A stretch of 64,000 nucleotides of DNA. It comes from Candidatus Woesebacteria bacterium GW2011_GWB1_39_12 (GTDB taxonomy: Bacteria > Patescibacteriota > Microgenomatia > UBA8517). Below, piece after piece: positions 9,459-38,842 of the stretch. The position numbers and the translations under genes were made by a program. The notes beneath the pieces are model-generated. The model worked only from the letters and a program-made list of their open reading frames with translations, did not search any database and was not told the DNA's origin. The stretch's first letter is position 1; each line of letters opens with the position of its first letter. The stretch spans positions 8,383 to 72,382 of the forward strand of contig LBWB01000007.1 of NCBI GenBank assembly GCA_000993405.1, written 5' to 3'.

Positions 9459-9754
9459 TCGTCGAAATAGACTACGCTTGCCGCAAACCGCGAACGCTTT
9501 TTGCTTAACGCTTCGTTATTTCTCCTCTCAAAATTTCTTCGAAATTTTGTGTGTTTTTTAAAGAAAGACAGTAGATATTATACAGCACCAAGCTCATATG
9601 GTAAAATATCAAAGCTAGATTTGCTTATTACGGAGTCGTCTGGCGCGAAGCGCAAAGGAAAGACTTTTAGTCTTGACGCCATGGTAAGCAAAGCTTGGCC
9701 ATTTGGAATACTAAATGGTAGGACTCCTGCGAAGCAGGAGTAAAACTATTACGT

Positions 9755-9826
9755 TGCGGAGTCGTCTAATGGTAGGACGTCACCCTTTGGAGGTGAATAT
9801 TCTTGGTTCGAATCCAAGCTCCGCAG
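9755..9826 (+). tRNA. tRNA-Gln (anticodon TTG)
   Basis: Acceptor TGCGGAG/CTCCGCA, anticodon stem TCACC/GGTGA with loop CTTTGGA, T-arm CTTGGTTCGAATCCAAG. Confidence 0.7.
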
Positions 9827-10048
9827 CTCTTCGACAAACTCAGTGCTTTAGCACTAAAGTTGTTGAAGTTATAACTGGGATGAGAAGTTTACCCTGAACA
9901 GAGTCAAGGAGAGTTCTCTTTCCGCAGCAAAACCAGAATGCTCCAGAAGTCTTAATACCCGAAAAAAATCTTAAGGCGTTGTCTCTGAATAAAATTGCCC
10001 TTGACATATATATAGTTATAGATCGATAATTGTCCTATAAGTGAAGTT

Positions 10049-16102: not shown

Positions 16103-16398
16103 CCAGTGGAGCATCGCAACCCCTGCCGTATGTTAAATTATTCATACGGGACTGGCCAGCTTAGCTGGCAGGAAGTGGGGACGATGTTAAGTCCGCATGG
16201 CCCTTATGTCTAGGGCAACACACATGCTACAATGGAGCCGACAATGGGTTGCCAAGTGGTAACACGGAGCTAATCCCATCAAACGGCTTCTCAGTTGGGA
16301 TTGAGGGCTGCAACTCGCCCTCATGAACGCGGAATTGGTAGTAATCGGAAATCAGCTAAGTTCCGGTGAATACGTTCTCGGGTCTTGTACACACCGCC

Positions 16399-17278
16399 GA
16401 AATTAAAACGCGCGTGGCAGTCATATTTTCTAACAAGTTAAAATCTTGTCTTTGTTGGATAACTTTAATTGTCTAATGGAGTAGCCAAAAAAATATATAA
16501 GCAGTCCTAGTCGGGTAACTGACTAGGGTGGAGGGCTTGAGGCAAAGAACAGGGATAGAATACAAAAAGATAGACGACTTCTGTTGGGCGGTCAGAAGGA
16601 AGTCGTTTTTACAAATCTTACTATTCATGTTTGGAACAGAAAGTATGATGACCCATGGAGATCCTTACAGGATTGAGGTAATTGCCTGTAAGGAAGTCAG
16701 CTTTTCCATAATAGGTAATTGAGCAAGTCTGACTTGCTTGACATTTTCGGGTTATATTTGTAATCTGAAATTACAATTACTGAAGGGAAAAACGTAAATG
16801 TTATTAACTCCAGATTATATAGTTGGTCTTACTGAAGGGGAAGGATGTTTCTTAGTATGCTTGAGACGCGATAATCGGATTGAATTTCGATTTTTTATAG
16901 CTCAGGCAATAGGGAATAGACCTCTTCTTGAAGAAATTAAAAAGTTTTTCAAAGTTGGAAGTGTTTACCAAAAGTCTAATGTAAAGGGAAAGTTACCGGC
17001 ATATGTCTTTGAAATTTCGAAAAGAGATGACATATATAAAGTACTTATTCCATTTTTTCAAAAAAACAAATTGAAAGGCATTAAATCTAAGTCGTTTGCA
17101 GTTTTTGAAGAAATTGCAAAATTAGTTAAAGGTAGACAAGATAAACGTAAACTAACTTCTGAAGAACTGAACTACATAACCAACTTAAGATTTGGAATGA
17201 ATAAACATTACGGCTCGCTAAGTGCGGAAAAACCGCTCGCTTAGTGGGAACGCGCAATAGCCTTAATGAAGCGCAATC
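16399..17278 (+). mobile_element. Intron in 16S at the site equivalent to E. coli position 1397-1400, carrying a LAGLIDADG homing endonuclease gene; probably group I
   Basis: The conserved tgtacacaccgcc...cgtcaag is interrupted by about 880 nt that contain the 16798..17244 ORF. Boundaries are approximate. Confidence 0.65.
16798..17244 (+). CDS. LAGLIDADG-family homing endonuclease, intron-encoded
   Basis: LLTPDYIVGLTEGEGCFLV matches the LAGLIDADG motif. 148 aa, embedded in the 16S insertion. Confidence 0.75.
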   Translation: MLLTPDYIVGLTEGEGCFLVCLRRDNRIEFRFFIAQAIGNRPLLEEIKKFFKVGSVYQKSNVKGKLPAYVFEISKRDDIYKVLIPFFQKNKLKGIKSKSFAVFEEIAKLVKGRQDKRKLTSEELNYITNLRFGMNKHYGSLSAEKPLA

Positions 17279-17552
17279 CGTCAAGTTAGTGAAGTTGGGG
17301 GCACCCGAATCCCGGATGTTCCGGGGCAAGGTGAAACCAGCGACAAGAATTAAGTCGTAACAAGGTATCCGTTCTGGAAGGAGCGGATGGATCACCTCCT
17401 TTCTAAGGAGTGTGAACTCCGATTAAATCGGAGATTACCCCTCAGTTTTCAGGTCGCAGTTTGCTGATAAACTAAACTGGACTCGCGCCTTCTGCGATAG
17501 TGGGCGTTTCCGACCATATTTTGGAGGCCAACCTAAATTATAAATGTCATAA

Positions 17553-17582
17553 AAAAACCCACCGTTTAAGGTGGGTTTTTTA
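17553..17582 (+). terminator. Terminator-like hairpin immediately downstream of 16S
   Basis: aaaaaacccaccgtttaaggtgggtttttt. It has the same stem as 14603-14628. Confidence 0.45.
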
Positions 17583-18078
17583 GTGGTAGAAATTAATATC
17601 CGAAAGTGTGGGGGCAAACATCCCGACTTCGCTTCCCCGAATTTAACCTCGGGGCGGCAAAGTTGCTTTAGAGGATTTTTAGTTCACCCCCACGCTTCCG
17701 GATACAAAAATAAGTTATATCCTTTCTATATTTATTTTAGCATTTTTAAAGAACCGCCGAGTCAAACTCGGCTGGTGCGTTAGACGCTCCGCACTGTTAC
17801 GGATCGAAAGTATTTCAATCCGTAAGTTGTGCGGCGGATTTAAAAGATTATGGAAAAAAGATGAGTGGTTATTGTGTAGCAGAAGCTACAAAATAATTTG
17901 TTCAGGCGCTTGTGCCCAAACTTCCCATCCCCATATTCTTAATAAATCCTTTGTCCCGATAAAATCGGGACAGCCGCTGTCCCAAGTCAAGCTTGACGTA
18001 AGCCGAGTATGACTCGGGTTGTGCCCCTGAAGTCAGGTTCCTCCTAAGGTCCTTTGGACCTCAGGGGCACTATAAATA

Positions 18079-18336
18079 TTACAAACTTTTCTTCCTCGTG
18101 CTCATAAGAAAAAGAGCAATGAGGATAATAATGACTACGGGCACGCTTATAGATCGCCATGCGTTGGTAGTAAAAAATGGCAGCACATAAGCAGCCCACG
18201 ATTTCCAGCTAAGGAATGAAACTAAAATCCCTAGCCCAAGGAAAATACAAAAAATCTTGTACCCGACACTGTCGGGTTTCCGAACCGGTCTATCGTTCAT
18301 TGCCTTTACTCCTTTTGAAAAAGATTTTTTCCTCAT
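18079..18336 (-). CDS. Small two-TM membrane protein (hypothetical) inside the rRNA spacer
   Basis: 85-aa ORF with two hydrophobic helices. Confidence 0.35.
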   Translation of the reverse strand: MRKKSFSKGVKAMNDRPVRKPDSVGYKIFCIFLGLGILVSFLSWKSWAAYVLPFFTTNAWRSISVPVVIIILIALFLMSTRKKSL

Positions 18337-18853
18337 ACGAGGAGAGAGGGGGGGAAAAGTTTTTTCTTCTCCCTCTTTTTCCTCGCAAGAGGCGAGAAAG
18401 GATTCCTAACACACAAATTTTTAATGTGCTAATTCCGCATTATTGACCCTCAAAATTAATTGAGAATCAAGTGGTGCGGGGGAGAAAGAAAAGATAGATA
18501 GTGGAAAGGGGGTTTTAGGTTGCAATAATAATTGCAAAATAAAATAATGATTTGAACGCAACGTTCAAATCCCCAATTCCTTTTCTTTTCGATCTCCCTG
18601 ATCCGTATTATTGTGTGGCAATCCGCCAGCAAGATGCTTTCGCAATCTCGAGGGCAATTTTGCCTCACTCAACGGATATTTCCGCATTTTCAGGTACCAG
18701 TCGGTACCTGATTTTATTCTTTGTTTTTCTCATCCGAAGATGAGTCTCCCACCAAGCTAAGCTTGGTAAACAAAGAGGGGAGAAGGGGGCGGTACCCTTC
18801 CGAGCTGCGTTTCCAACGCAATTCGGGGTGCTGACCGCCCCATAAGGCTCTAT

Positions 18854-19540
18854 TTATTTGACACGAACAACAATGTTCGCGTCATTTCCTGTTGAGCCAT
18901 CAGGCCCGTGGCCATAGATCGTGTAGGTACCGGGTTCAAGGACGAACCCAAGATATAGCCACCCGATGTGGTGGTTGTCCTTGTTGACCCATACCGCTGG
19001 GGGTTCGAGGGGGATGCAATGCATCCCTTTGGTGCAGATTCGCACCTTCTCGAGGGTCCCAAGCCACGTGATCGTGAGCCCGCCACTACCGCTCGGGTAG
19101 TACGTTGCCCGCTTGGGGGCAACGATTTTTGTGACGTCCTTGTCGGACTTCACATAGACGGGGGGGACGGGGGTGCCGGTCGGAACAGGGGTCGGGTTGG
19201 GGACGGGAGTTGGATCAGGGCAATCAGGGCGCTGAATTTTCAGCTGATCTTTTTCGACGTGAGTCGGATTCGACCATTTAGCCGTCGCATTGACGACTGC
19301 CTGTTTCTGGCCGCCCTGCCAGCTTCCCGACTGGTGATTCCAGTGTATTGAAGCCCCAGAAGGGCTTAACTTGGAAACCCAGGAATCCCAGCCTTGGCAG
19401 TTTGCGTTGCCATCGATCTGAAAAATGTAACCCCCGCCCTTGGCGGACGCTGAATCCGACATAGTGCCGGCCAGCATAACGGTCAGGATTAGAGTGGCGA
19501 CCAGCCACTTTTTAATACGGTTGGCGTTCATTATGAACAC
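18854..19540 (-). CDS. Secreted hypothetical protein with a signal peptide and a Pro/Thr linker (PTPVPNPTPVPTGTPVPP)
   Basis: 228 aa with signal MFIMNANRIKKWLVATLILTVMLAGT. The gene is markedly more GC-rich than its surroundings. Confidence 0.6.
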   Translation of the reverse strand: MFIMNANRIKKWLVATLILTVMLAGTMSDSASAKGGGYIFQIDGNANCQGWDSWVSKLSPSGASIHWNHQSGSWQGGQKQAVVNATAKWSNPTHVEKDQLKIQRPDCPDPTPVPNPTPVPTGTPVPPVYVKSDKDVTKIVAPKRATYYPSGSGGLTITWLGTLEKVRICTKGMHCIPLEPPAVWVNKDNHHIGWLYLGFVLEPGTYTIYGHGPDGSTGNDANIVVRVK

Positions 19541-19865
19541 CTCCTATCGATATTCTCCGCTCTACGGCTGGAGTGAGGCCGACTTTCAAAATTGCTGAAA
19601 GCGGTGTAGAAGCAAATAAAGTTAAATAAGTTAATTAAGTTAACTAAGAGATTAAGTAATATTTAGATTTTTGTGCTCCTAATTAACCGATTAACAGATC
19701 ACTATTCTTGCTCGCAAAGCGAGTACTTACTCCCACAAAGCTTCCAGCAATAATTTGTTAATGTGCGACACCCTCCTTATCTTCGCACTTGGCTTTTCAA
19801 TACTATTCGTATACGCCTCCTGCCAAGATTGGTCGGAGGGTTGTGTACTATTTTTATTTATTAAG

Positions 19866-19885
19866 GAACACAAAAAAGCCGCGGC
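19866..19885 (-). terminator. Hairpin plus T-run when read on the minus strand, downstream of the 20245..22497 gene
   Basis: aaaaaagccgcggcttt on the plus strand, which reads aaagccgcggcttttttt on the minus strand. Confidence 0.35.
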
Positions 19886-20244
19886 TTTAGAGGCCACGGC
19901 TTTAATACAAACCGTTAACGGTTAATCAAAATTTTTGATTAACTTAAATTACTTCACCTCTAAAGCATTTACCCTAAGAATGTATCCTAGAGTATTGGCA
20001 CTATAACACAGTAAGTGCTATTTGTCAAGCCCCCCGTGCTCTTGTGCGAGTAAATATTACATTCAAAACACTTTGAGGGGCGAGTTTTTGCAATACTTTG
20101 AATTCACTCGATAATTGCAAATCAAAAAACACACGGGATTTGAAATCGAAAATTTCTGAGTGCGCCAATACAAAATTAGATTGTACCGGTGGTACAATAA
20201 ACTTGGAGAGTACGTTTTCACGAAGTTTTCACGGTAAACTGAAG

Positions 20245-22497
20245 CTAATTTTCGTCTTCAATCTTGCCCTCAAATATTGTCCCTGAAGACTCATTTTGGG
20301 CAGGTTCGGAATCTGATTTCACTTTCTTGGCATATCTTTCCCTTGATACCCGGATAACTTTATCTTTATTCTGATTTCGGGAAACCGGAAGGGGAAGAGT
20401 ATTGGCCAAGAATGGCCTTGTCGTATGTCCATCTATTGTTAGTTTTAGCGCGATTTGGAAATTTTGCAAGTTCACCAGATCGTTTTGCGAGAACACCTCG
20501 GCAAACTCTTTAAAAATTACGTTTGCGTCTTCCGCCCCAACGGCAAAAGAAATTAAAGTTCCGGCATTTCCCAAAATTGCTTTTTGGACATATTCGGGAA
20601 TTTGTGCCATGTATTGGTTTGCTAAAGTTAACGCCAGGCCGAATTTTCTTGCCTCGGACAAAATTTTTATAAATGAATCGGTTGCAAAATTCTGAAATTC
20701 ATCAACATATAAATAAAAAGGGACCCGGGTCTCTTTGGGAATATCGACACGGTGCATTGATGCCAATTGAAACTTTGTAATAAGCATTGCACCAAGAAGA
20801 CTTGAGTTGTCTTCGCCAAGGCGACCTTGGGAAAGGTTTGCGATGAGAATTTTTTTGCCGTTAATTATTTCATCAATAGAAATGGTTGACTTGGGTGCGC
20901 CGATTATTCTGCGTATCAAAGGAGAAGTCACGAACTGTCCGACTTTATTTTGGATGGGAGCTATTGCTTCTTTTTGAAGGGCCATGGGCATTTTGTCGAA
21001 TTCTTCTTTCCAGAAATGAACTAGTGACGGATCGGTTAGTCTGGCAACGATTTTATTTCTGAAAGACTGGTTTGCAAGCATTTTTAAAACGTCTGCCAAA
21101 GTTGAATTGGGGATTTCGGTCAGCGTTAAAAATGAATTTCTTAAAATGTATTCCATTCGGGCAGACCAGACGTTTGCCCAGACTTTTGTAAATATACTCA
21201 TTAAACCCGAGGCGACGAGTTCTGCTTCCTCGCGATTTGTGACTTCCAGGGGATTTAAAACAATGGGGAAGTCACGGTCGGCCGGGTTAAAGTAAATGGT
21301 ATCGTTGATTCTTGAAGCCGGAATATAGTTTAAGATATCGTCGCAAAGGTCCCCATGCGGGTCAATTACGGCAACACCTCTGCCTTTTTTAAAGTCATCA
21401 ATTGCCATATTGGCAATCATTGTTGATTTACCGGTTCCCGTTTTTCCGACGGTCCAGATATGGCGAAGTCTGTCAGATTCTTTTATGCCGAAGATGCTTT
21501 CTTTATTTTTAAAAGGAGTCTTAGCAAAAAAATTGATTTTTCTTTTTTCCTCGTCAGTAAGCCCTTCAGAAACAGGGAGTTTTTCGGGGGGCTCTGTAAG
21601 AACCGATGTCCCCCAGGTAATTCCCGGAACTTTGATTTTTTCCGAAGGCAAATGCCATAAAGTTGCCAGCTCAATGATATTTAAAATTTGTTTATCGGAA
21701 ACACGCCTTGCCCTTAGAGCTTTAGTTTCCGAGGTTTTGTTAAAACGGTTAGGGGATTTGACAGAAAAAGAATTTGCATCTGATCTGGCAAAGACTCCGA
21801 AGGCGTCTGCAATACCTTTCAGGGTTTTATTTGTATTGCCGGCTATCCTTAAAGTAGTTCTGAAACCTGGGTAAGAAATTTTTTCTTTAATGATATTTGC
21901 GTCCGTCCTTTGGGAAAAAGTTCCATCGGCGTTTTTAGCACCTTTATCAGAGAAAACTTGTCCTTGGGTCTGCCAGTTGGGTGTTATTGACTCCAATGCG
22001 ATTTGGATGAGAACCACTTCATCCGGATCTCCTTTTGAAAGGACAGAAAGAATGGATGATAGAGGATCAACGTCCTGGAAATTAGAGTAAGTTTGGATGG
22101 AGTAAAAACTTCCCTTGGCAAGTTTTAGAAAAAACACTTTGATATCTTGATTCTCCAGAGGGCTCGCCTCGATTCGACCGAGTCGGAGCGGGCTCGCCTC
22201 GCTGAAGCTTTGGCGAAGCGGGTCTTCAATTTTTTCAATTATTACCAAAGGATAGTTTGAGCGGATCTGAGTCTCAATAAAAGATACTAATGACGCATGG
22301 CATGTAACAAGAAACCTGATTTGCTGGTTAACTAATGCAATCTCAAGAGCAAAAGCAGGTGGTTTTTTGCCGAGAAGTTTATCCAATGTTGATGCATAAT
22401 TAATTTGGGTTAAAGCGGCAAGAAATGTTTTTGCCGCCTCAGGAGTGACCTCGATATTTCGAGGTAGTTTAAGAGAAAGAGTTATTAATCCTTCCAC
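20245..22497 (-). CDS. TraD/VirD4-family (T4SS coupling-protein-like) P-loop ATPase; HerA/DUF87-like is the alternative
   Basis: Walker A TVGKTGTGKST, ...AVIDPHGD..., Walker B FYLYVDEFQNF, and ...LALTLANQYMAQ... as found in the conjugative coupling protein / T4SS-DNA-transfer domain. Confidence 0.55.
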   Translation of the reverse strand: MEGLITLSLKLPRNIEVTPEAAKTFLAALTQINYASTLDKLLGKKPPAFALEIALVNQQIRFLVTCHASLVSFIETQIRSNYPLVIIEKIEDPLRQSFSEASPLRLGRIEASPLENQDIKVFFLKLAKGSFYSIQTYSNFQDVDPLSSILSVLSKGDPDEVVLIQIALESITPNWQTQGQVFSDKGAKNADGTFSQRTDANIIKEKISYPGFRTTLRIAGNTNKTLKGIADAFGVFARSDANSFSVKSPNRFNKTSETKALRARRVSDKQILNIIELATLWHLPSEKIKVPGITWGTSVLTEPPEKLPVSEGLTDEEKRKINFFAKTPFKNKESIFGIKESDRLRHIWTVGKTGTGKSTMIANMAIDDFKKGRGVAVIDPHGDLCDDILNYIPASRINDTIYFNPADRDFPIVLNPLEVTNREEAELVASGLMSIFTKVWANVWSARMEYILRNSFLTLTEIPNSTLADVLKMLANQSFRNKIVARLTDPSLVHFWKEEFDKMPMALQKEAIAPIQNKVGQFVTSPLIRRIIGAPKSTISIDEIINGKKILIANLSQGRLGEDNSSLLGAMLITKFQLASMHRVDIPKETRVPFYLYVDEFQNFATDSFIKILSEARKFGLALTLANQYMAQIPEYVQKAILGNAGTLISFAVGAEDANVIFKEFAEVFSQNDLVNLQNFQIALKLTIDGHTTRPFLANTLPLPVSRNQNKDKVIRVSRERYAKKVKSDSEPAQNESSGTIFEGKIEDEN

Positions 22498-22559
22498 AGT
22501 AATTTATTATATATCAGGGGGTTGGAGAAAGAAGAGGGAAACAAACTCGTTGGTTATGG

Positions 22560-22922
22560 CTACCGCCGGAGAATTTCTGCTAGTTTATCAATAAAATCTT
22601 GTGTCTCTTTTGGGTGGGTATATATCCAGTAGGTGGCTGTACTCCCAACGCAGAGAAACGTAAGAAAAGCACTCACAGCAACTATGGCAGCCGATTTTCC
22701 TTCACCGGGTTCTGGTTGGTCTGGAATCACTTCTTTCGATATTTCTGTAGGGTCAAGTTCGTGCATAAAAAACTCGTAGTAAATTATAGGATTAATTGAG
22801 TTCGATGTCAAATTGTGGTAAATTAATCGTACTCGGGTGGTTAGTTCACCGGTTAGAACGCTTACCTGATGACAAACGAAGTTTGACATAACAAAAATTG
22901 CAAACGGGGGCACGTAGTTCAC
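22560..22922 (-). CDS. Possible small membrane protein; overlaps the tRNA-Ile fragment and gene
   Basis: 120-aa ORF with one TM. The overlap with tRNA sequence makes it doubtful. Confidence 0.25.
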   Translation of the reverse strand: MNYVPPFAIFVMSNFVCHQVSVLTGELTTRVRLIYHNLTSNSINPIIYYEFFMHELDPTEISKEVIPDQPEPGEGKSAAIVAVSAFLTFLCVGSTATYWIYTHPKETQDFIDKLAEILRR

Positions 22923-22979
22923 TGGTAGAACGCTTACCTGATAAGTAAGAAGTAGATAGTTCGATTCTATCCGTGCCCA
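22908..22979 (+). tRNA. tRNA-Ile (anticodon GAT) in the 16S-23S spacer
   Basis: Acceptor GGGCACG/CGTGCCC, anticodon stem CTTAC/GTAAG with loop CTGATAA, T-arm GATAGTTCGATTCTATC. Confidence 0.7.
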
Positions 22980-23195
22980 CTCAAAAGTAAGAGGTGTAAG
23001 GCTTGCCCTGAGCGAAGTCGAAGGGTTCGATTCCTTGCGCGCCCACAGAATGGATTTTTTACCTGTTGACGGAGTTCGATATTTTGTAATATAATTCCTT
23101 TTACCTTTTTAAGGCCGTTTACTTAATGAGAATCCGAAAATTAATATTAATCTATAACCCACAGGAATTCTGTGGCTAAATTAGGGAAAGATTAG

Positions 23196-23222
23196 GATCA
23201 TTAGGTAATCCCGCCTTAAAGC
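23196..23222 (+). terminator. Terminator-like hairpin between tRNA-Ile and tRNA-Ala
   Basis: aatcccgccttaaagcgggatttttt. Confidence 0.4.
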
Positions 23223-23283
23223 GGGATTTTTTATTGCACATTTGAAAATTAATATTAGGGAGATAGGGAAGATTAGGGATTAA

Positions 23284-23357
23284 GGGCCCGAAGTTTACCC
23301 GGTTTGAACGCGTCATTTGCAATGACGAGGCAGAGGGTTCGACTCCCTCCGGGTCCA
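23284..23357 (+). tRNA. tRNA-Ala (anticodon TGC) in the spacer
   Basis: Acceptor GGGCCCG/CGGGTCC with the G3:U70 identity pair, anticodon stem CGTCA/TGACG with loop TTTGCAA, T-arm GAGGGTTCGACTCCCTC. Confidence 0.7.
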
Positions 23358-23581
23358 CAACGAAAGAAATTGCTTTGCAATTTCAACGTTGTAGGAACGT
23401 TTAAATTCGAAAGAATTTATTACGTTCCACCCCATTGGTACTTGGAAAGTGGCGGTTGGTGACTGGATATTTTTTCGTCACGAGCCGCCAATTTCCAAAT
23501 ACTAATAATTATATTTGCACTTTGAAATCTGAAGACCATGAAGTGAGCTTTTGCTCTACTTCATGAGGAAAGTAAGGCCAT

Positions 23582-23760
23582 GCCTTGTGCATAGCACAAG
23601 GAATTTCTAATTTCTAATTCCTAATTTCTAAACAAATCCAAAGCACTAAATTCAAATGTTCAAAACTTTTTAATTAGTTTTGAATTTTGGATTTTAAAAT
23701 TTGAGAATTGTTTTGGATTTAGGATTTTGGATTTAGGATTTCCTCGCGCTGTGCGCGAGG
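23582..23760 (+). repeat. IVS-like element B1 at or near the 23S 5' end
   Basis: Hairpins gccttgtgcatagcacaagg and cctcgcgctgtgcgcgagg flank complementary ttctaatttc / ggatttagga halves. Confidence 0.5.
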
Positions 23761-24063
23761 CTATAAGTCTGATATTAACGCAGACAGTGAATGCCTTGGT
23801 GTAAGTTGCCGAAGAAGGACGCACATGGTAGCGATATTCGTCGGGGAGGAGCCACGATCCTGTGATCCGGCGGTGTCCGAATGGAGAAATCCGACCGAGT
23901 TCATACTCGATCACTCCGTGATAAAAATAATTTACGCAAGTAAGTTGTATAGTCGCGGTAGAGGGAACCGTCCAAACTGAAACATCTAAGTAGGGCGAGG
24001 AAGAGAAATCAATAGATATTCCGTCAGTAGCGGAGAGCGAAAGCGGAAAAGCCCAAACCCGCC

Positions 24064-24242
24064 CGTGCGTAGCACTGGAAGTTCCAATTTCCAATCACCA
24101 ATTTCCAAATAATTTCAAATTTCAAATGACAAATTTTCAAAACATTTCTAATCTTAAAGGAGTTTTGAGTTTTTGATTTTGAATTTCGAGTTTGTTTGGG
24201 ATTTGGAATTTGGGTTTTGGAATTTCTCATGCTGCGCATGAG
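24064..24242 (+). repeat. IVS-like element B2 (23S helix-9 region)
   Basis: The 3' hairpin is ctcatgctgcgcatgag. The two halves are complementary (ttccaatttccaa / ttggaatttgg). Confidence 0.55.
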
Positions 24243-24427
24243 TGGGGGTTGTAGGAGCCCGATGTGGGAGTCGACTTGGTAGCAGAATTATCTGGAATGG
24301 TAGATCATAGAGAGTGAAAATCTCGTATGCAAAATTAAGTCGACCTCTAGGGATTTCCTGAGTACCACGATTTAAATCTTCGTGGGAAGCTGGGGGAGTC
24401 ATCCTCCAAGGCTAAATACAACTTGCA

Positions 24428-24468
<41 letters not shown>

Positions 24469-24523
24469 GGGCGAGACGCCCAGTGAAATAGAACCTGAAA
24501 CTGTTTGCGGACAAACCGAGAGA

Positions 24524-24682
24524 GCCTTCGAACAGGAAATTTCAAAAGACAAATAACAAATTACAAACAAGTTCCAAATAACAGAACCCAATATATAGTT
24601 TTAAAAAGTTTTGCAATTTGTGAATTAATTATTGTTTGTATATTGGAAATTGGTAATTGGAGTTTCCCGCTCGGAGAGCGGG
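24524..24682 (+). repeat. IVS-like element B3 (23S helix-25 region)
   Basis: It follows cagtgaaatagaacctgaaac. The 3' hairpin is cccgctcggagagcggg. Confidence 0.55.
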
Positions 24683-24916
24683 TGATCTCGTGCCTATTGA
24701 AGAATGAGCCGGCGAGTTACCGCGTAGCGCATAGTCTAACCGAGTCTGACTCGGGGAGGCGTAGGGAAACCAAGTCTGAATAGGGCGATTAGCGCGAAGT
24801 GGTAGACCCGAAACCGGGTGATCTATCCATGAGCAGGGTGAACCCCGACGAAAGTCGGGGGGAGGCCCGAACCGGTGTAAGTTGCAATTTGCTCGGATGA
24901 CTTGTGGATAGGGGTA

Positions 24917-24950
<34 letters not shown>

Positions 24951-25179
24951 CCCGAAAGGTCTATAGGGACCGTGGTACGTAAGGTGTTGCCGATGGTAGA
25001 GCTACTGAATGGGTAAGCGAGGGTAACCGAGTTTACTCAATCAAACTCCGAATAGCGGTAAACATTAACGTACTAAACAGTCGCATCGGGCTAAGCTGAT
25101 GCGGCGAAAGGGAAACATCCCAGACTCTCAGCTAAGGCCTCTAAATTACAGCTAAGTTTCAAAGGAAGTTCACGTCCGT

Positions 25180-25230
<51 letters not shown>

Positions 25231-25300
25231 CAGCTCACTGGTCGAGGTTGTGGGCGCCGAAGATTTATCGAGGATAAGCTGTATGCCGAAGCTGGAGATG

Positions 25301-25506
25301 CCTGTTCGTAGAACAGGAAATTTCAAATAATAAATGCCAAGTAACAAACCCTTCGATTTTACTCAGGGTCCTGAGCAGGTCGAAGGACAAATTCCAAATA
25401 ATAAAATCCCAATGAATAAAAAAGTTTTTAGATTTTAAGATTTGTGATTTAAATTTTGTTTGTAAATTGGATATTGAAAATTGGAGTTTCCCGCTCTGCG
25501 AGCGGG
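25301..25506 (+). repeat. IVS-like element B4 (23S helix-45 region)
   Basis: 5' hairpin cctgttcgtagaacagg; 3' hairpin cccgctctgcgagcggg. Confidence 0.55.
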
Positions 25507-25746
25507 TGTGGTAGGGGAGCGTTCCGTATCCAGTGAAGTTAAGCCGTAAGGCTTGGTGGAGGATACGGGAGTGAGAATGCCGGCATGAGTAGCGTACTAT
25601 CCCGGAGAGAATCCGGGACACCGAATGCCCGAGGATTCCGTCGCGAGGTTCGTCCCCGACGGGTTAATCGGTACCTAACCTAAGGCCAAATGGCGTAGGG
25701 GATGGATAACTGGTCAAAATTCCAGTATTTATTTTGAATCGAAAGC

Positions 25747-25904
25747 CCTTGTGCTTTGCACAAGGAAATTACAATAAACAAACACCAATTTCCAAACAAA
25801 TTCCAAATTGCAATTAAGAAAAATAAAATAATTGTGATTTGTTAATTAATATTTGTTTGTAATTTGTAAATTGTGTTTTGTGATTTTCTCGCGCAGAGCA
25901 CGAG
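25747..25904 (+). repeat. IVS-like element B5 (23S, domain III region)
   Basis: Its 5' hairpin ccttgtgctttgcacaagg and 3' hairpin ctcgcgcagagcacgag are almost identical to the ends of 16S element A1. Confidence 0.55.
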
Positions 25905-26979
25905 GTAATTGGGGGTTGACTGGATAGGATGGTTGAAGCCTCATAACGATTTGGGGTGTAAGTTATAAGATAGTGTCAGCAGGAAAATCCGCTAATACGT
26001 TTAATCAAGTAGCGATGCAGAGTCTTGCGCAAGCAAGACAATTTCATCCCATTCAATCTACAAGAAAAGACTCGCAGTGAGATTCAAGGTAAGCCGTACC
26101 GCAAACCGACACAGGTGGGCTGGTCGAGAAGACTAAGGTGATCGAGAGAAAGAGGTTCAAGGAACTCGGCAAAAAATCTGGACGTAAGTTCGCAAGATGT
26201 CCTCCCTGAAAAATCTTCGGATTTTTTAGGGTACAACAAAAGAGTGCTAACCGACTGTTTATCAAAAACACAGGTCCGTGCAAAAGCGAAAGCTAAGGTA
26301 TACGGGCTGACGCCTGCCCAGTGCCGGTAAGTGAAGGGGATGGGTTTTACGGATTTATCCGTAAGGCCTTGAACTCAAGCTCCGGTAAACGGCGGCTTTA
26401 ACTATAAGAGTCCTACGGTAGCGAAGTTCCTTGTCGTGTAAGTTACGACCCGCACGAAAGGCGTTACGAGTTAGCAACTGTCTCGAGCCTCTACTCGGCG
26501 AAATTGCGTTGGCTGTGAAGACGCGGCCTACTTCCACCAGGACAAAAAGACCCCGTGGAGCTTTGTTTTGTGCGAGCCAATTGTTTAGAGTAGGAGGGAC
26601 CCTGAGAGCAATCGAAGGGGACACTGAAACACCTCCCTTTGGAACGTGGCAAGACTTACCTAACGTCCTTGCAAACAGGTCGAGGAAAAGTGCTAGGTGG
26701 GCAGTTTTACTGGGGCGGTACCCTGCCAAAAGGTAACGCAGGGGTACAAAGGTTGGCTTAGCACGGATGGACATCGTGCTGAATGTATAAAGGCATAAGC
26801 CAGCTTGATAGCGACTGCGACGGCAGAAGCTAGTACGAAAGTAGGTCTTAGTGATCCTCCGATTGCCTAGTGATAGGCACGGAGCTTAACGGATAAAAGC
26901 TACCCCGGGGATAACAGAGTAGTCGCACCCGAGAGTCCATATCGACGGTGCGGTTCGCTACCTCGATGTCGGCTCACCG

Positions 26980-27010
<31 letters not shown>

Positions 27011-27023
27011 GGTCTGTTCGCCC

Positions 27024-27068
<45 letters not shown>

Positions 27069-27502
27069 GAGTCCGATAACATATCGGACTGACACCAAGC
27101 GGTCTCATCCCTTGACTGACTGAAATACACATCGAAGGATTAGTAACTAATTTGTTATCAACAATCGTTTATAAGGATATATTAAACGGTTTAATTTAAA
27201 TATTTAAATTTGATCTTTTTGTCTAAATAGGAAAGAGGGAATATAAATCTGACTATATGCTGGAAACTCCGGTGTATCCTGTGCTACTCTTGAAAAAGAG
27301 TGAAAAAGCAACAGGTGCGGACAATCAGCAGGAAAGGCCTCATTAGATATGGAATTATCTAATGGGGAATCCTCAACGACTATACGTCAGAATACGTTCA
27401 GTTTACATGAACGTATAAGATATAGTCTGATCTCCATGGCGACTTGGAGGGTTGAAAATCGTTCAGCCGTAAAAACAAGCGGAGTATTGATATACTAAAT
27501 GT
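27069..27502 (+). mobile_element. ORF-less insertion of about 430 nt in 23S just upstream of the sarcin-ricin loop, equivalent to about E. coli position 2590; putative intron
   Basis: The conserved gtcgtgagacagtt ... cggactctatccggtgg...cagtacgagaggacc is interrupted by AT-rich sequence that contains no ORF of 60 aa or more. Confidence 0.45.
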
Positions 27503-27630
27503 CGGACTCTATCCGGTGGAAGCGTTCGAGTCTTGAAGGGAGCTGGCCTCAGTACGAGAGGACCAGGCCGGGGGAATCCCTGGTGTGCCGGTTGTGGCAT
27601 CAGCCGCAACGCCGGGTAGCTACATTCCCA

Positions 27631-27662
<32 letters not shown>

Positions 27663-27847
27663 GCCCCCCCTAAGATTAGGACTCGTTATTAGATCCCTAG
27701 AAGAATACTAGGTTGTTCGACAGGCGGTGGAAGTCGCGTAAGCGATTAAGCCTACCTTGTACGAATCGATCGATTTCAGACTTACTTACTCCTAATGAAG
27801 TATTGTATAAGCTCACTTTATGGTCTTTAGATGAGAAGCAAAGCTTT

Positions 27848-38046: not shown

Positions 38047-38108
38047 AGGGCCGTTAGTATAGTCCCGCCAGAGGCGGGCAGGGGTAATGTAAACCCTTAC
38101 GAATATTC
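38047..38108 (+). other. tRNA-like fragment (GGGCCGTTAGTATAGT...) immediately upstream of tRNA-Ala
   Basis: It shares its first 6 nt (GGGCCG) with the downstream tRNA and contains the hairpins cccgccagaggcggg and gggtaatgtaaaccc. No complete cloverleaf could be drawn. Confidence 0.3.
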
Positions 38109-38180
38109 GGGCCGATAGGTAAACGGTATACCGTACCCTTCGCATGGGTAAGTTCTGGGTTCAATTCCCAGCCGGTCCAC
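38109..38180 (+). tRNA. tRNA-Ala (anticodon CGC)
   Basis: Acceptor GGGCCGA/CCGGTCC with G3:U70, D-arm GGTA-AACGGTA-TACC, anticodon stem TACCC/GGGTA with loop TTCGCAT, T-arm CTGGGTTCAATTCCCAG. Confidence 0.65.
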
Positions 38181-38239: not shown

Positions 38240-38842
38240 TTAGGGAATGGGCGAGATGATTTTGGGTGGAGAGAAGACAATAATTAGAAGAGTAATCAAG
38301 GCGATAAGAGCAATAGTTATAGAAATTGTGACAAGTCCAAATCTTTCATTCGATAGAAGAAAAATTGGTTTTTTAGTTACCTCAGGATTTGTCGATGGTT
38401 CAAGAATTGACGGGTGAGAGAGGGGTGGTGTTGAAATAGAGTCAATATTTGTTGAAAGAGTAAGGAGCTTATCATATTTAGAAGGTCTTTGAACTGTAAA
38501 ATAACGGGGCACTATCAGTTTAGACTTTTCTTCCAGGGGTCGATCGATCTCCGACTTAATCTGATCCGTAACTGTGGCCGTGTCTGCTATTTCTATTTTT
38601 GTAGTTTTTTCATCCGACTTACTTTTAAGATCTACTTTTGCTAATTCATCTCTTTCATATTTACTCCCAAAAAGATTGTCCAGATCTTCCTTCTTAAAAT
38701 ATCTATGACCTCCCGGGGATCTATATACTTCAACTTTTTCTCTTTTTTCCCAACGACGTAACGTGTCTATGGAAATTCCTAGATAGTTTGAAGCCTCTCC
38801 AATACTAAGTAATTTTTTTGCTAAATCTGCCCTTACTTTCAT
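38240..38842 (-). CDS. MerR/excisionase-type HTH DNA-binding protein with a C-terminal membrane anchor
   Basis: LLSIGEASNYLGISIDTLRRWEKREKV forms an HTH_17-type helix-turn-helix. The C-terminal hydrophobic helix reads LVTISITIALIALITLLIIVF. Confidence 0.55.
   Translation of the reverse strand: MKVRADLAKKLLSIGEASNYLGISIDTLRRWEKREKVEVYRSPGGHRYFKKEDLDNLFGSKYERDELAKVDLKSKSDEKTTKIEIADTATVTDQIKSEIDRPLEEKSKLIVPRYFTVQRPSKYDKLLTLSTNIDSISTPPLSHPSILEPSTNPEVTKKPIFLLSNERFGLVTISITIALIALITLLIIVFSPPKIISPIP

Follow-up and report, generated by a model that had tools for sequence, protein, structure and literature searches.

Nested tRNA-Ile genes in a Woesebacteria genome and their probable origin by repeated insertional replacement

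Why should half of a tRNA-Ile gene lie directly upstream of an intact one? The question is raised by the rRNA region of Candidatus Woesebacteria bacterium GW2011_GWB1_39_12, within a stretch of 64,000 nucleotides (nt) of contig LBWB01000007.1 that was analysed as a whole (the window, in whose coordinates positions are given). An initial annotation, made from the sequence alone, had taken the partial copy to be the footprint of a site-specific integration into the tRNA gene. We find that a second tRNA piece lies downstream of the intact gene and that related bacteria carry the same arrangement, sometimes in several layers. The best reading of these data is that tRNA-Ile has probably been replaced repeatedly, through the insertion of a compact cassette that carries a tRNA-Ile of its own, and that the outer halves are relics of the interrupted genes.

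A probable older tRNA-Ile around the present gene

That the 5' part of tRNA-Ile is duplicated upstream of the intact gene is confirmed by several lines of evidence: (i), positions 22854-22870 are identical over 17 nt to positions 22926-22942 of the intact tRNA-Ile (repeat family D6; E=2e-4); (ii), a local gapped alignment of 22842-22883 with tRNA-Ile positions 8-46 scores 48, where 2000 shuffles gave 14.9 +/- 2.3 with a maximum of 28 (z=14); and (iii), the fragment is the top non-self match to tRNA-Ile on either strand of the whole window. The homology that the initial annotation had placed at 22836-22890 and described as D-arm plus anticodon stem is thus real, but its true extent is 22835-22870 and it includes the acceptor strand. 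This 5' half reads GGGTGGT UA GUUC ACCGGUU A GAAC G CUUAC CUGAU and its homology stops exactly after the anticodon (U36); the 'GAAGT' resemblance that reaches 22883 is part of a linker hairpin and not of a tRNA. The copy begins 73 nt, one tRNA length, ahead of the start of the intact tRNA-Ile.

A tRNA 3' piece downstream of the intact tRNA-Ile had been missed. Positions 23025-23046 are 82% identical to 22959-22980 (family D3), with an alignment score of 25 that was equalled in 4 of 2000 shuffles. AAGTAAGAGGTG at 22985-22996 corresponds to A37-A38, the 3' strand of the anticodon stem and the variable loop, the stem pairing 5/5 with CUUAC of the upstream fragment, and GGGTTCGATTCCTTGCGCGCCCA at 23023-23045 corresponds to the T arm and acceptor strand. 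When 22871-22984 and 23002-23024 are removed in silico, ARAGORN calls a 75-nt tRNA-Ile(gat) with D stem 4/4, anticodon stem 5/5, T stem 5/5 (with one G.U and one pair that the program flags as weak) and acceptor stem 5/7. Because this excision restores a cloverleaf, we take 22835-22870 and 22985-23045 to be the two halves of one former gene. This tRNA-Ile was likely split between U36 and A37 by the 114-bp insert 22871-22984, which holds the present tRNA-Ile and whose second junction would lie at 22984/22985.

The rebuilt outer tRNA is 65/74 identical to the intact tRNA-Ile of one related locus, L008 (relatives are designated here by L and a number), and 64/74 to that of L002, versus 58/74 to the inner tRNA of the window; the flanking halves are therefore a different allele and not copies of the adjacent gene. 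Taken alone, the outer 5' half matches that of the intact tRNA-Ile of L008 and L002 at 33/37 positions, and the rebuilt tRNA shares with the L008/L002 type an additional U in its D loop and the variable loop AGGUG. In L008 and L002 the tRNA-Ile stands uninterrupted at a syntenic position, and that of L007 is likewise uninterrupted at the same chromosomal position. These comparisons bear on a rival explanation, in which slippage or unequal exchange produced two independent partial duplications, one copying the 5' half upstream and the other the 3' half downstream, with no insertion at all. The start-to-start spacings of 72 and 66 nt, about one tRNA length, would suit such an origin; however, the halves are nearer to the L008/L002-type allele than to the adjacent tRNA, both break at the same position of the anticodon loop, and the linkers between halves and tRNA form a conserved, covarying module in many genomes. 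We consider independent duplications extremely unlikely. Tandem Repeats Finder (TRF) detected no tandem array over 22600-23100.

The integration of an island, as first suggested, would make the fragment a displaced copy of an attachment (att) site, left when the 17.4-22.8 kb segment integrated site-specifically between 16S and tRNA-Ile. Fragments of tRNA beside intact tRNAs are indeed a classic integration scar, and the segment parts 16S from tRNA-Ile and encodes a conjugation-type coupling protein. However, the matching attachment sequence proposed for 17.4-18.1 kb is absent: no tRNA-Ile-derived repeat occurs anywhere in 17300-22800, at the far end or elsewhere, the sole tRNA-Ile repeats being 22854-22870/22926-22942 and 22959-22980/23025-23046, and Pfam identified no integrase or recombinase within the 17.4-22.8 kb region. 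Its genes, on the minus strand, encode a 228-amino-acid (aa) protein, a TrwB/TraD-type coupling protein (750 aa) and a small membrane protein; Pfam gave no match for the 228- and 68-aa proteins and only a sub-threshold DUF6249 match for an 85-aa open reading frame (ORF). In at least 10 distinct relatives the gene immediately upstream of tRNA-Ile is the TraD-like one, and L008 and L007 have it upstream of tRNA-Ile. Because the relatives' TraD-like proteins are only 57-83% identical, the layout 16S-...-TraD-like(-)-tRNA-Ile is old synteny and not a recent island. Nesting and 'island' also vary independently, since L004 and L065 are nested with 16S directly upstream and L007 and L008 have the 'island' without nesting. 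Finally, the distance between fragment and intact tRNA is 37 nt and not a matter of kilobases, the true partner of the fragment follows that tRNA on its downstream side, and a comparison of orthologous loci found fragment and linker kept in relatives, a pattern that the initial annotation had itself taken to speak against an island. On its own terms, the island reading is contradicted, and we give it next to no credence; what survives is the idea that DNA was inserted into a tRNA gene, with other DNA, another second junction and another kind of event than those first proposed.

The insert itself appears better preserved than the halves that enclose it. In four species the linker and inner tRNA are nearly invariant and the outer halves differ; the inner tRNA-Ile of the window is 72/72 identical in L003, and an alignment shows that L003 and L005 retain CAAAAAAGAG...GTTTTC(A/G)CTAT where the 3' linker of the window is deleted. 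The gap between outer half and intact tRNA is 37 nt on the 5' side and 5 nt on the 3' side. The unit of the window folds no better than shuffled sequences (z=-0.33). Judged from its sequence, the outer layer has probably decayed here (acceptor 5/7, P2 3' strand deleted, 23-nt insertion in the T arm) and would have no tRNA function, so that the fragment may be seen as a dead relic, now reduced to the 5' leader of pre-tRNA-Ile.

A candidate promoter comprises a -35-like TTGAGT (22796-22801), a 17-nt spacer, TG (22816-22817) and a -10 TAAATT (22819-22824), the extended -10 being TGGTAAATT at 22816-22824. A consensus scan misses this motif, which is too weak, so that the case for it is one of conservation: the extended -10 TGnTAAAnT occurs upstream in 20 of 25 non-redundant related loci. 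In nested loci its distance from the first G of the outermost 5' half is mostly 10-20 nt (up to about 35), and un-nested loci have it 11-23 nt ahead of the tRNA. The promoter of the old gene thus appears to drive the whole unit, the fragment being the first part of the pre-tRNA leader. On the other strand, a perfect divergent promoter serves ATG 22766, the start of an operon that encodes the small membrane protein and then the TraD-like protein; the ORF 22560-22922(-), which overlaps the fragment, is therefore not coding beyond 22766. A promoter within the linker (TTGACA 22884-22889) was considered and rejected, 19-24 nt to the tRNA start being unfit for sigma-70 and the weak match at 22869-22898 reaching 9/12.

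Nested tRNA-Ile genes and their linkers in relatives

The arrangement is widespread. A GTDB scan of one genome per species, with the 19-mer common to the fragment and tRNA-Ile as query, yielded 14 contigs, 12 with this tRNA-Ile type. An outer tRNA piece precedes the intact gene in 8 of these 12, as a linker-type 5' half in seven and as a shell of another form in L013; among the remaining four, one has a 3' remnant alone and three are un-nested. A metagenome scan with the window-linker pattern gave 78 contigs, 33 of them true loci (in which a tRNA 5' half is followed by the linker and, after 37-45 nt, by tRNA-Ile) and the rest chance matches; 30 of the 33 hold the inner tRNA on the contig. Metagenome loci, GTDB loci and window together contain 17 distinct linkers of the same architecture, L039 and L076 being identical to the window, and the nested loci lie on Woesebacteria and Shapirobacteria contigs. 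The window is 100% identical to the JGI contigs Ga0208958_1009484 and Ga0208375_1030343, and L003, L014 and L009 come from the Rifle and Crystal Geyser groundwater sets. With related contigs from metagenome-assembled genomes of Woesebacteria and Shapirobacteria, the window has the look of a Patescibacteria genome. The order shared by the true loci is, on the 5' side, a 5' half ending in CCUGAU, GA, the hairpin P1, A(C/U)AUAU, an A/U-rich P2 5' strand and a few nt, and on the 3' side, after the intact tRNA-Ile(GAU), a few nt, the P2 3' strand, YUAU and a 3' half starting with AAG. The inserts measure 110-140 bp in relatives.

Nesting reaches up to three complete layers. In L009 (Shapirobacteria), positions 45-470 (426 nt) fold into a perfect triple-nested cloverleaf with a minimum free energy of -156 kcal/mol (z=-8.4). 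An ARAGORN intron search (-i0,500) reported no nested tRNA; the layers were therefore spliced in silico and ARAGORN was rerun, and since its default settings tolerate long extra arms, only products of 72-76 nt were trusted. Such virtual splicing gives ARAGORN-valid 72-76-nt tRNA-Ile in L009, L019, L021, L029 and L043, with 11-12/12 pairs between the halves and a T stem of 5/5. A permissive pair-count 'peeling' of layers also produced many chance matches of 10-11/12 in A/T-rich flanks, and only those with a T stem of 5/5 and tRNA-like sequence were kept. L029 has three layers, and L065 has three stacked 3' halves whose types repeat the stack of L029, plus a newer innermost tRNA. A tRNA type that occupies the innermost place in one lineage forms an outer layer in another, as predicted by successive insertion into the currently intact gene. 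The tRNA-Ile 19-mer had no match in IMG/VR, where a viral source was sought, and a limited literature search found no account of nested tRNA genes in the ultra-small bacteria of the Candidate Phyla Radiation (CPR), which is absence of evidence only.

The two linkers of a locus fit each other. Duplexes between a locus's own 5' and 3' linkers (L5/L3) average -13.0 kcal/mol versus -4.9 kcal/mol for mismatched loci (permutation p<1e-4), and the own partner ranks first in 11 of 14 cases. P2 keeps a constant shape, with AUA/UAU, one mismatch and then 11-14 bp. In an ungapped covariation alignment of anchored segments from 13 units, 92.3% of cells are paired, versus 70% in shuffles and 32-46% with slid partners; both sides have changed in 16 of 24 pairs, and the covariation score is 0.56 versus 0.15. 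The outer anticodon stem covaries along with P1 and P2. On the sense strand G.U is nearly absent (2 G.U vs 7 A.C among 312 cells), so that the covariation signal is not clearly RNA-specific. Rfam has no family for the linker: searches of 16300-23800 (E<=10) and of L009 1-520 (E<=1) returned the inner tRNA only.

Several variants of the architecture were also seen. L013 (oriented 1080-1330) is nested in another form, its shell having an acceptor stem GCGCATG/CATGCGC (7/7), a T stem of 5/5 and a T-loop insertion of ~80 nt, and its anticodon arm being replaced by a 9-bp helix placed directly around the intact tRNA-Ile, with no P1/ACAUAU linker. At the 3' junction of an outer layer, L029 and L077 carry ~40-nt inserts without a tRNA (GAC-hairpin-GACATGT-hairpin-CAT) exactly at CTAT^AAG; these are homologous to the start of the tRNA-carrying linker. 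The 3' linker of L005 has a different 38-nt insert at the same CTAT^AAG point. Short palindromes (CCAAGTCTGACTTGG / GGCAAGTCAGACTTGCC; CCTGCC...GGCAGG) recur in D loops, T loops and position 26 of outer halves, the sites being outer halves of L003, L005, L014, L013, L029 and L077 and 23002-23024 of the window, and in L014 a CGAAG direct repeat brackets one of them. These palindromes may represent miniature mobile hairpins or else expansion segments. The features of the window are collected in Table 1.

Table 1. Coordinates of the nested tRNA-Ile unit and of related features in the window
Feature	Position	Strand	Basis or remark
Divergent promoter TTGACA-17-TATAAT (12/12) of the minus-strand operon	22783..22811	-	promoter scan
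Candidate promoter of the nested unit	22796..22824	+	read from the sequence; putative function
Outer (older) tRNA-Ile 5' half, positions 1-36, last letters anticodon GAU	22835..22870	+	17-nt exact repeat, cloverleaf, relatives
Insert 5' linker	22871..22907	+	nearly invariant in L003, L005, L006
Linker GA	22871-72	+	
Hairpin P1 CAAAC-GAA-GTTTG	22873-22885	+	
Linker ACATAA	22886-22891	+	
Helix P2 5' strand, then GG	22892-22905	+	
Intact inner tRNA-Ile(GAU), functional gene, cargo of the insert	22908..22979	+	ARAGORN; Rfam tRNA 69.9 bits
3' linker remnant	22980..22984	+	P2 3' strand and YTAT junction deleted here
Outer tRNA-Ile 3' half	22985..23045	+	repeat D3, in silico excision, 65/74 identity to L008
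A37 A38 of outer 3' half	22985-86	+	
Anticodon-stem 3' strand GTAAG	22987-91	+	
Variable loop AGGTG	22992-96	+	
T stem TAAGG / CCTTG	22997-23001 / 23033-37	+	
23-nt T-arm insertion within outer 3' half	23002-23024	+	
T loop of outer 3' half	23026-32	+	
Acceptor strand CGCGCCC	23038-44	+	
Discriminator A	23045	+	
Tentative 5' remnant of older tRNA-Ala, GGGCCGT UA G..., with inserted CCCGCC-AGA-GGCGGG hairpin	38049..38108	+	sequence, 7/7 pairing with 38243-38249
tRNA-Ala(CGC), intact	38109-38180	+	
Tentative 3' acceptor strand ACGGTCC A C of older tRNA-Ala	38243..38251	+	8/9 identical to the intact tRNA-Ala(CGC) 3' end

A possible mechanism and the status of the outer layers

A scheme for repeated replacement may be suggested. 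The cassette consists of a 5' linker (GA, P1, ACAUAU, P2 5' strand), a complete tRNA-Ile(GAU) and a 3' linker (P2 3' strand, YUAU), and its insertion would be tolerated because it breaks the resident gene yet supplies a replacement of the same isoacceptor. The promoter ahead of the old 5' half would then drive the new tRNA, and the old halves would persist as a 5' leader and a 3' trailer from which RNase P and 3' processing would free the inner tRNA. Each new cassette would enter the anticodon loop of the innermost intact tRNA, building up nested stacks, and this would have recurred across the Microgenomates lineage (Woesebacteria, Shapirobacteria). Outer layers would meanwhile decay through D- and T-loop insertions, the loss of one half and deletions between stacked halves.

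For the entry of a cassette, our preferred route would be homologous recombination with the split gene of a relative, the conserved halves of ~36 nt serving as arms, after one or a few founding events; the junction would then be inherited and not re-created. Such a route would need no special enzyme and would explain the shuffling of tRNA types among layers. Alternatively, a trans-acting nuclease or transposase might read the P1/P2 hairpins, and the tRNA-less inserts at AT^AAG in L029 and L077 hint at autonomous insertion. It is possible, if doubtful, that the cassette is a compact structured element of Microgenomates that targets U36/A37 of tRNA-Ile(GAU), bears tRNA-Ile at the tip of P2 and compensates for its own insertion. 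Such an element could enter the gene that it replaces and so build 'Russian-doll' tRNA genes, and it would be moved by a hairpin-recognising enzyme or excised from RNA, several tRNA-Ile then arising from one transcript.

Are the outer layers relics? Their state in several loci points in this direction. Over 3.5 kb, L030 and L025 are 99% identical and differ by one whole layer (L030 7620-8030 against L025 3135-3545, oriented), which is a population-level polymorphism: in L025 the layer was lost when the DNA between the TTGGCTCAGT repeats of two stacked 5' halves was deleted, leaving a chimeric acceptor strand that mismatches its 3' half. L037 and L069 are identical up to the T loop of the outer 3' half and fully divergent from there on. 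Orphan halves occur in L043, L019, L065, L006 and L041, the 3' partner or P2 is missing in the window, L006 and L041, and outer layers hold insertions of 20-80 nt in the D and T loops. We infer that the outer halves are non-functional relics, the structure of the cassette being selected for its spread or for tRNA processing.

Several points weigh against this account. Outer layers of L029 (layer 3), L013 and L014 keep perfect acceptor, anticodon and T stems despite loop insertions of 30-80 nt; together with the covariation of P1 and P2, such intact stems suggest that a structure of RNA or single-stranded DNA is under selection rather than decaying freely, and outer shells may be functional, for instance as a processing scaffold, or even be spliced. 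The covariation alignment was assembled by ourselves, and the metagenome pattern was taken from the window's own linker, so that the sample is biased to this linker family. The position of the junction has a 2-nt ambiguity (CUGAU|...YUAU|AAG).

The first of these points can be given a precise form: outer tRNA-like helices, P1 and P2 might be selected as a multi-helix RNA that guides or times processing by RNase III, RNase P and RNase Z or stabilises the precursor, a functional RNA although no longer a set of tRNAs, the scaffold having been lost in the window. The joint covariation of P1, P2 and the outer anticodon stem, the outer stems that remain intact around large loop insertions and the folding of nested L009 (z=-8.4) would all be consistent with this, as would a pair of D-loop hairpins (AAGC-AAA-GCTT and a covarying second hairpin) common to outer halves of tRNA-Ile in L041 and L003 and of tRNA-Gln in the window. 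Yet half-shells stand orphaned, a strain-level deletion breaks acceptor pairing, either the 3' partner or P2 is gone from the window, L006 and L041, the un-nested L002, L007 and L008 manage without any scaffold, and the near absence of sense-strand G.U is unlike typical RNA-level selection. A selected scaffold therefore seems unlikely to us.

A true intron would go further: the cassette would be removed from the RNA and the outer tRNA-Ile matured as well, giving several tRNA-Ile per transcript, and the window would be a dead example of a novel class of bacterial tRNA introns that carry a tRNA as cargo. The constant insertion site in the anticodon loop, the conserved three-way junction with covarying helices, the flawless outer tRNAs of L009, L019 and L043 and the tRNA-less inserts that L029 and L077 carry at this AT^AAG junction are what one would expect. 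But no known splicing chemistry fits an insert of 110-140 nt including its tRNA: Rfam finds no group I core, the 3' end is U and not G, the junction is 36/37 and not 37/38 with no bulge-helix-bulge drawable by eye, and the hammerhead-like CUGAUGA lacks a following GAAA. Many outer layers, moreover, have D- or T-loop insertions or lack one half. Because every locus retains an intact inner tRNA, splicing is never required, and we hold a spliced intron to be very unlikely. Repeated insertional replacement that leaves relic halves remains the reading that we prefer.

Other tRNA genes, known systems and significance

Two other tRNA genes of the window have similar flanks. The initial annotation had noted a weaker fragment before tRNA-Ala(CGC), at 38047-38108; the alignment alone is not significant, but GGGCCGTTAG at 38049 does copy the first 10 nt of this tRNA, 60 nt upstream. 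ACGGTCCAC lies 63 nt downstream of the gene, and because the two strands pair 7/7, including the alanine identity pair G3.U70, the same phenomenon is probably at work and the flanks are probably a decayed outer tRNA-Ala. Upstream of tRNA-Gln (9755-9827), positions 9631-9735 copy tRNA positions 2-13 and 14-24, parted by a D-loop insertion of ~70 nt with hairpins AAGC-AAA-GCTT and CCATTT...AAATGG, a design as in the outer tRNA-Ile halves of L041 and L003, and a copy of the 3' acceptor strand at 9919-9927 forms 6/7 pairs. Relic shells at tRNA-Gln and tRNA-Ala(CGC) suggest that the process is not confined to tRNA-Ile. There were no flanking copies at tRNA-Glu and tRNA-Lys of the window and no convincing nesting among 17 non-redundant tRNA-Ala(UGC) genes in the fetched loci.

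The rRNA genes around the unit have peculiarities of their own. The 16S rRNA contains an intervening sequence of ~880 nt (about 16400-17279) with a LAGLIDADG endonuclease ORF at 16798-17244; its Rfam match ends at 16470 because the 3' end is force-fitted there, whereas the true 3' end is GGATCACCTCCTT at 17389-17401 and the 16S ends at 17403. A strong bidirectional terminator hairpin (17558-17582) stands right behind it, and because this terminator intervenes and tRNA-Ile, tRNA-Ala, 23S and 5S lie 5.4 kb off, beyond minus-strand genes, 16S would be transcribed apart from them. The 23S rRNA (23764-27786) measures 4023 nt against a 2925-nt model; it has a group I intron at 27196-27449, and further insertions must exist. 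Between tRNA-Ile and tRNA-Ala, 23066-23232 comprises a near-consensus promoter (TTGACG-18-TATAAT, 23066-23095), ~110 nt and a terminator-like hairpin (23207-23228). This unit is kept in L005, L019, L021 and L037, has no Rfam match and could be a small RNA or a leader/attenuator of tRNA-Ala-23S.

How does the nested tRNA-Ile compare with known insertions into tRNA genes? Genomic islands may leave a duplicated tRNA 3' end. In Caldiarchaeum, a 5' fragment of tRNA-Thr lies 1.8 kb upstream of the intact gene and is associated with an integrative element (Sugahara et al. 2012, PMC3293823). As in such tRNA-targeting elements, a partial copy stands here beside an intact tRNA of the same kind as an insertion scar; unlike the present cassette, they are kilobases long, encode a recombinase and duplicate an att core or one part of the tRNA only, whereas both old halves here flank a complete new tRNA, at 37 and 5 nt. 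A close parallel is tRNA-dependent lysogeny of actinobacteriophages, in which the insert disrupts an essential host tRNA gene without rebuilding it (Guerrero-Bustamante & Hatfull 2024, PMC10865867). Similarly, the outer tRNA-Ile(GAU) is split at U36/A37 and the insert supplies an intact tRNA-Ile(GAU). There, however, a whole prophage enters with a tyrosine integrase and an attP/attB core; here the insert has 110-140 bp with a tRNA as sole gene, a site in the anticodon loop, covarying hairpins and repeated nesting, and no integrase nearby. A reading of the junction as a tyrosine-recombinase core site was tried and did not fit. Hairpins beside a fixed 4-5-nt target, with no clear target duplication, recall integron attC-like or IS200/IS605-like ends, a likeness that we offer as a lead only.

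Introns provide a second comparison. Group II introns occupy trnI-GAU and trnA-UGC in the rRNA spacer of chloroplasts. Bacterial group I introns reside in anticodon loops (Williams 2020, bioRxiv 10.1101/2020.01.27.920355), and archaeal and eukaryal bulge-helix-bulge introns at 37/38 (Yoshihisa 2014, PMC4090602). The cassette shares with these an intervening sequence in the anticodon loop, the tRNA-Ile(GAU) of the rRNA region as host and, with group I, a U at -1; it differs in having no ribozyme core, no omega-G and a complete tRNA as cargo. Rfam detects no group I catalytic core at tRNA-Ile, the Intron_gpI match of the window lying in 23S, and there is no omega-G because the insert ends in YUAU| in 12 of 13 aligned units, the 5' junction CUGAU| having U. 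At CUGAU-GA-P1-AC-AUA... / ...UAU-AA, a 3-4-3 bulge-helix-bulge could not be drawn by eye, no dedicated search being made, and the 36/37 junction is ambiguous over 34-36. A hammerhead was considered on account of CUGAUGA and a type I helix order and was rejected, P1 being followed by AC and not GAA(A), two A's preceding stem I and Rfam giving no match. In the split and permuted tRNA genes of Nanoarchaeum, Caldivirga and Cyanidioschyzon (PMC4033280, PMC3978253), halves are also parted at the anticodon loop, and adjoining complementary sequences, here P2, can bring them together. There, a splicing endonuclease and a ligase join the halves into the only functional copy, whereas here an intact copy lies between halves of which many are degenerate or orphaned.

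By analogy with these systems, the nested tRNA-Ile may be regarded as a variant of insertional tRNA-gene replacement without phage or integrase. Nested shells have been invisible in the annotations of thousands of CPR genomes because tRNA finders and Rfam detect the innermost gene only, and such shells may be read as integration scars, which was the case in the initial annotation. For the window itself the practical message is modest. More generally, the known strategy by which an insert disrupts an essential tRNA gene but provides a spare copy would be reducible to about 120 bp with no protein gene, and the layers of the stacks would record, in datable form, how tRNA-Ile alleles successively replaced one another and how lineages of unculturable organisms recombined. 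Should the cassette prove to be self-mobile or spliced, it would represent a new type of tRNA intervening sequence in bacteria and would have implications for older proposals that tRNAs arose by the joining of halves at the anticodon loop.

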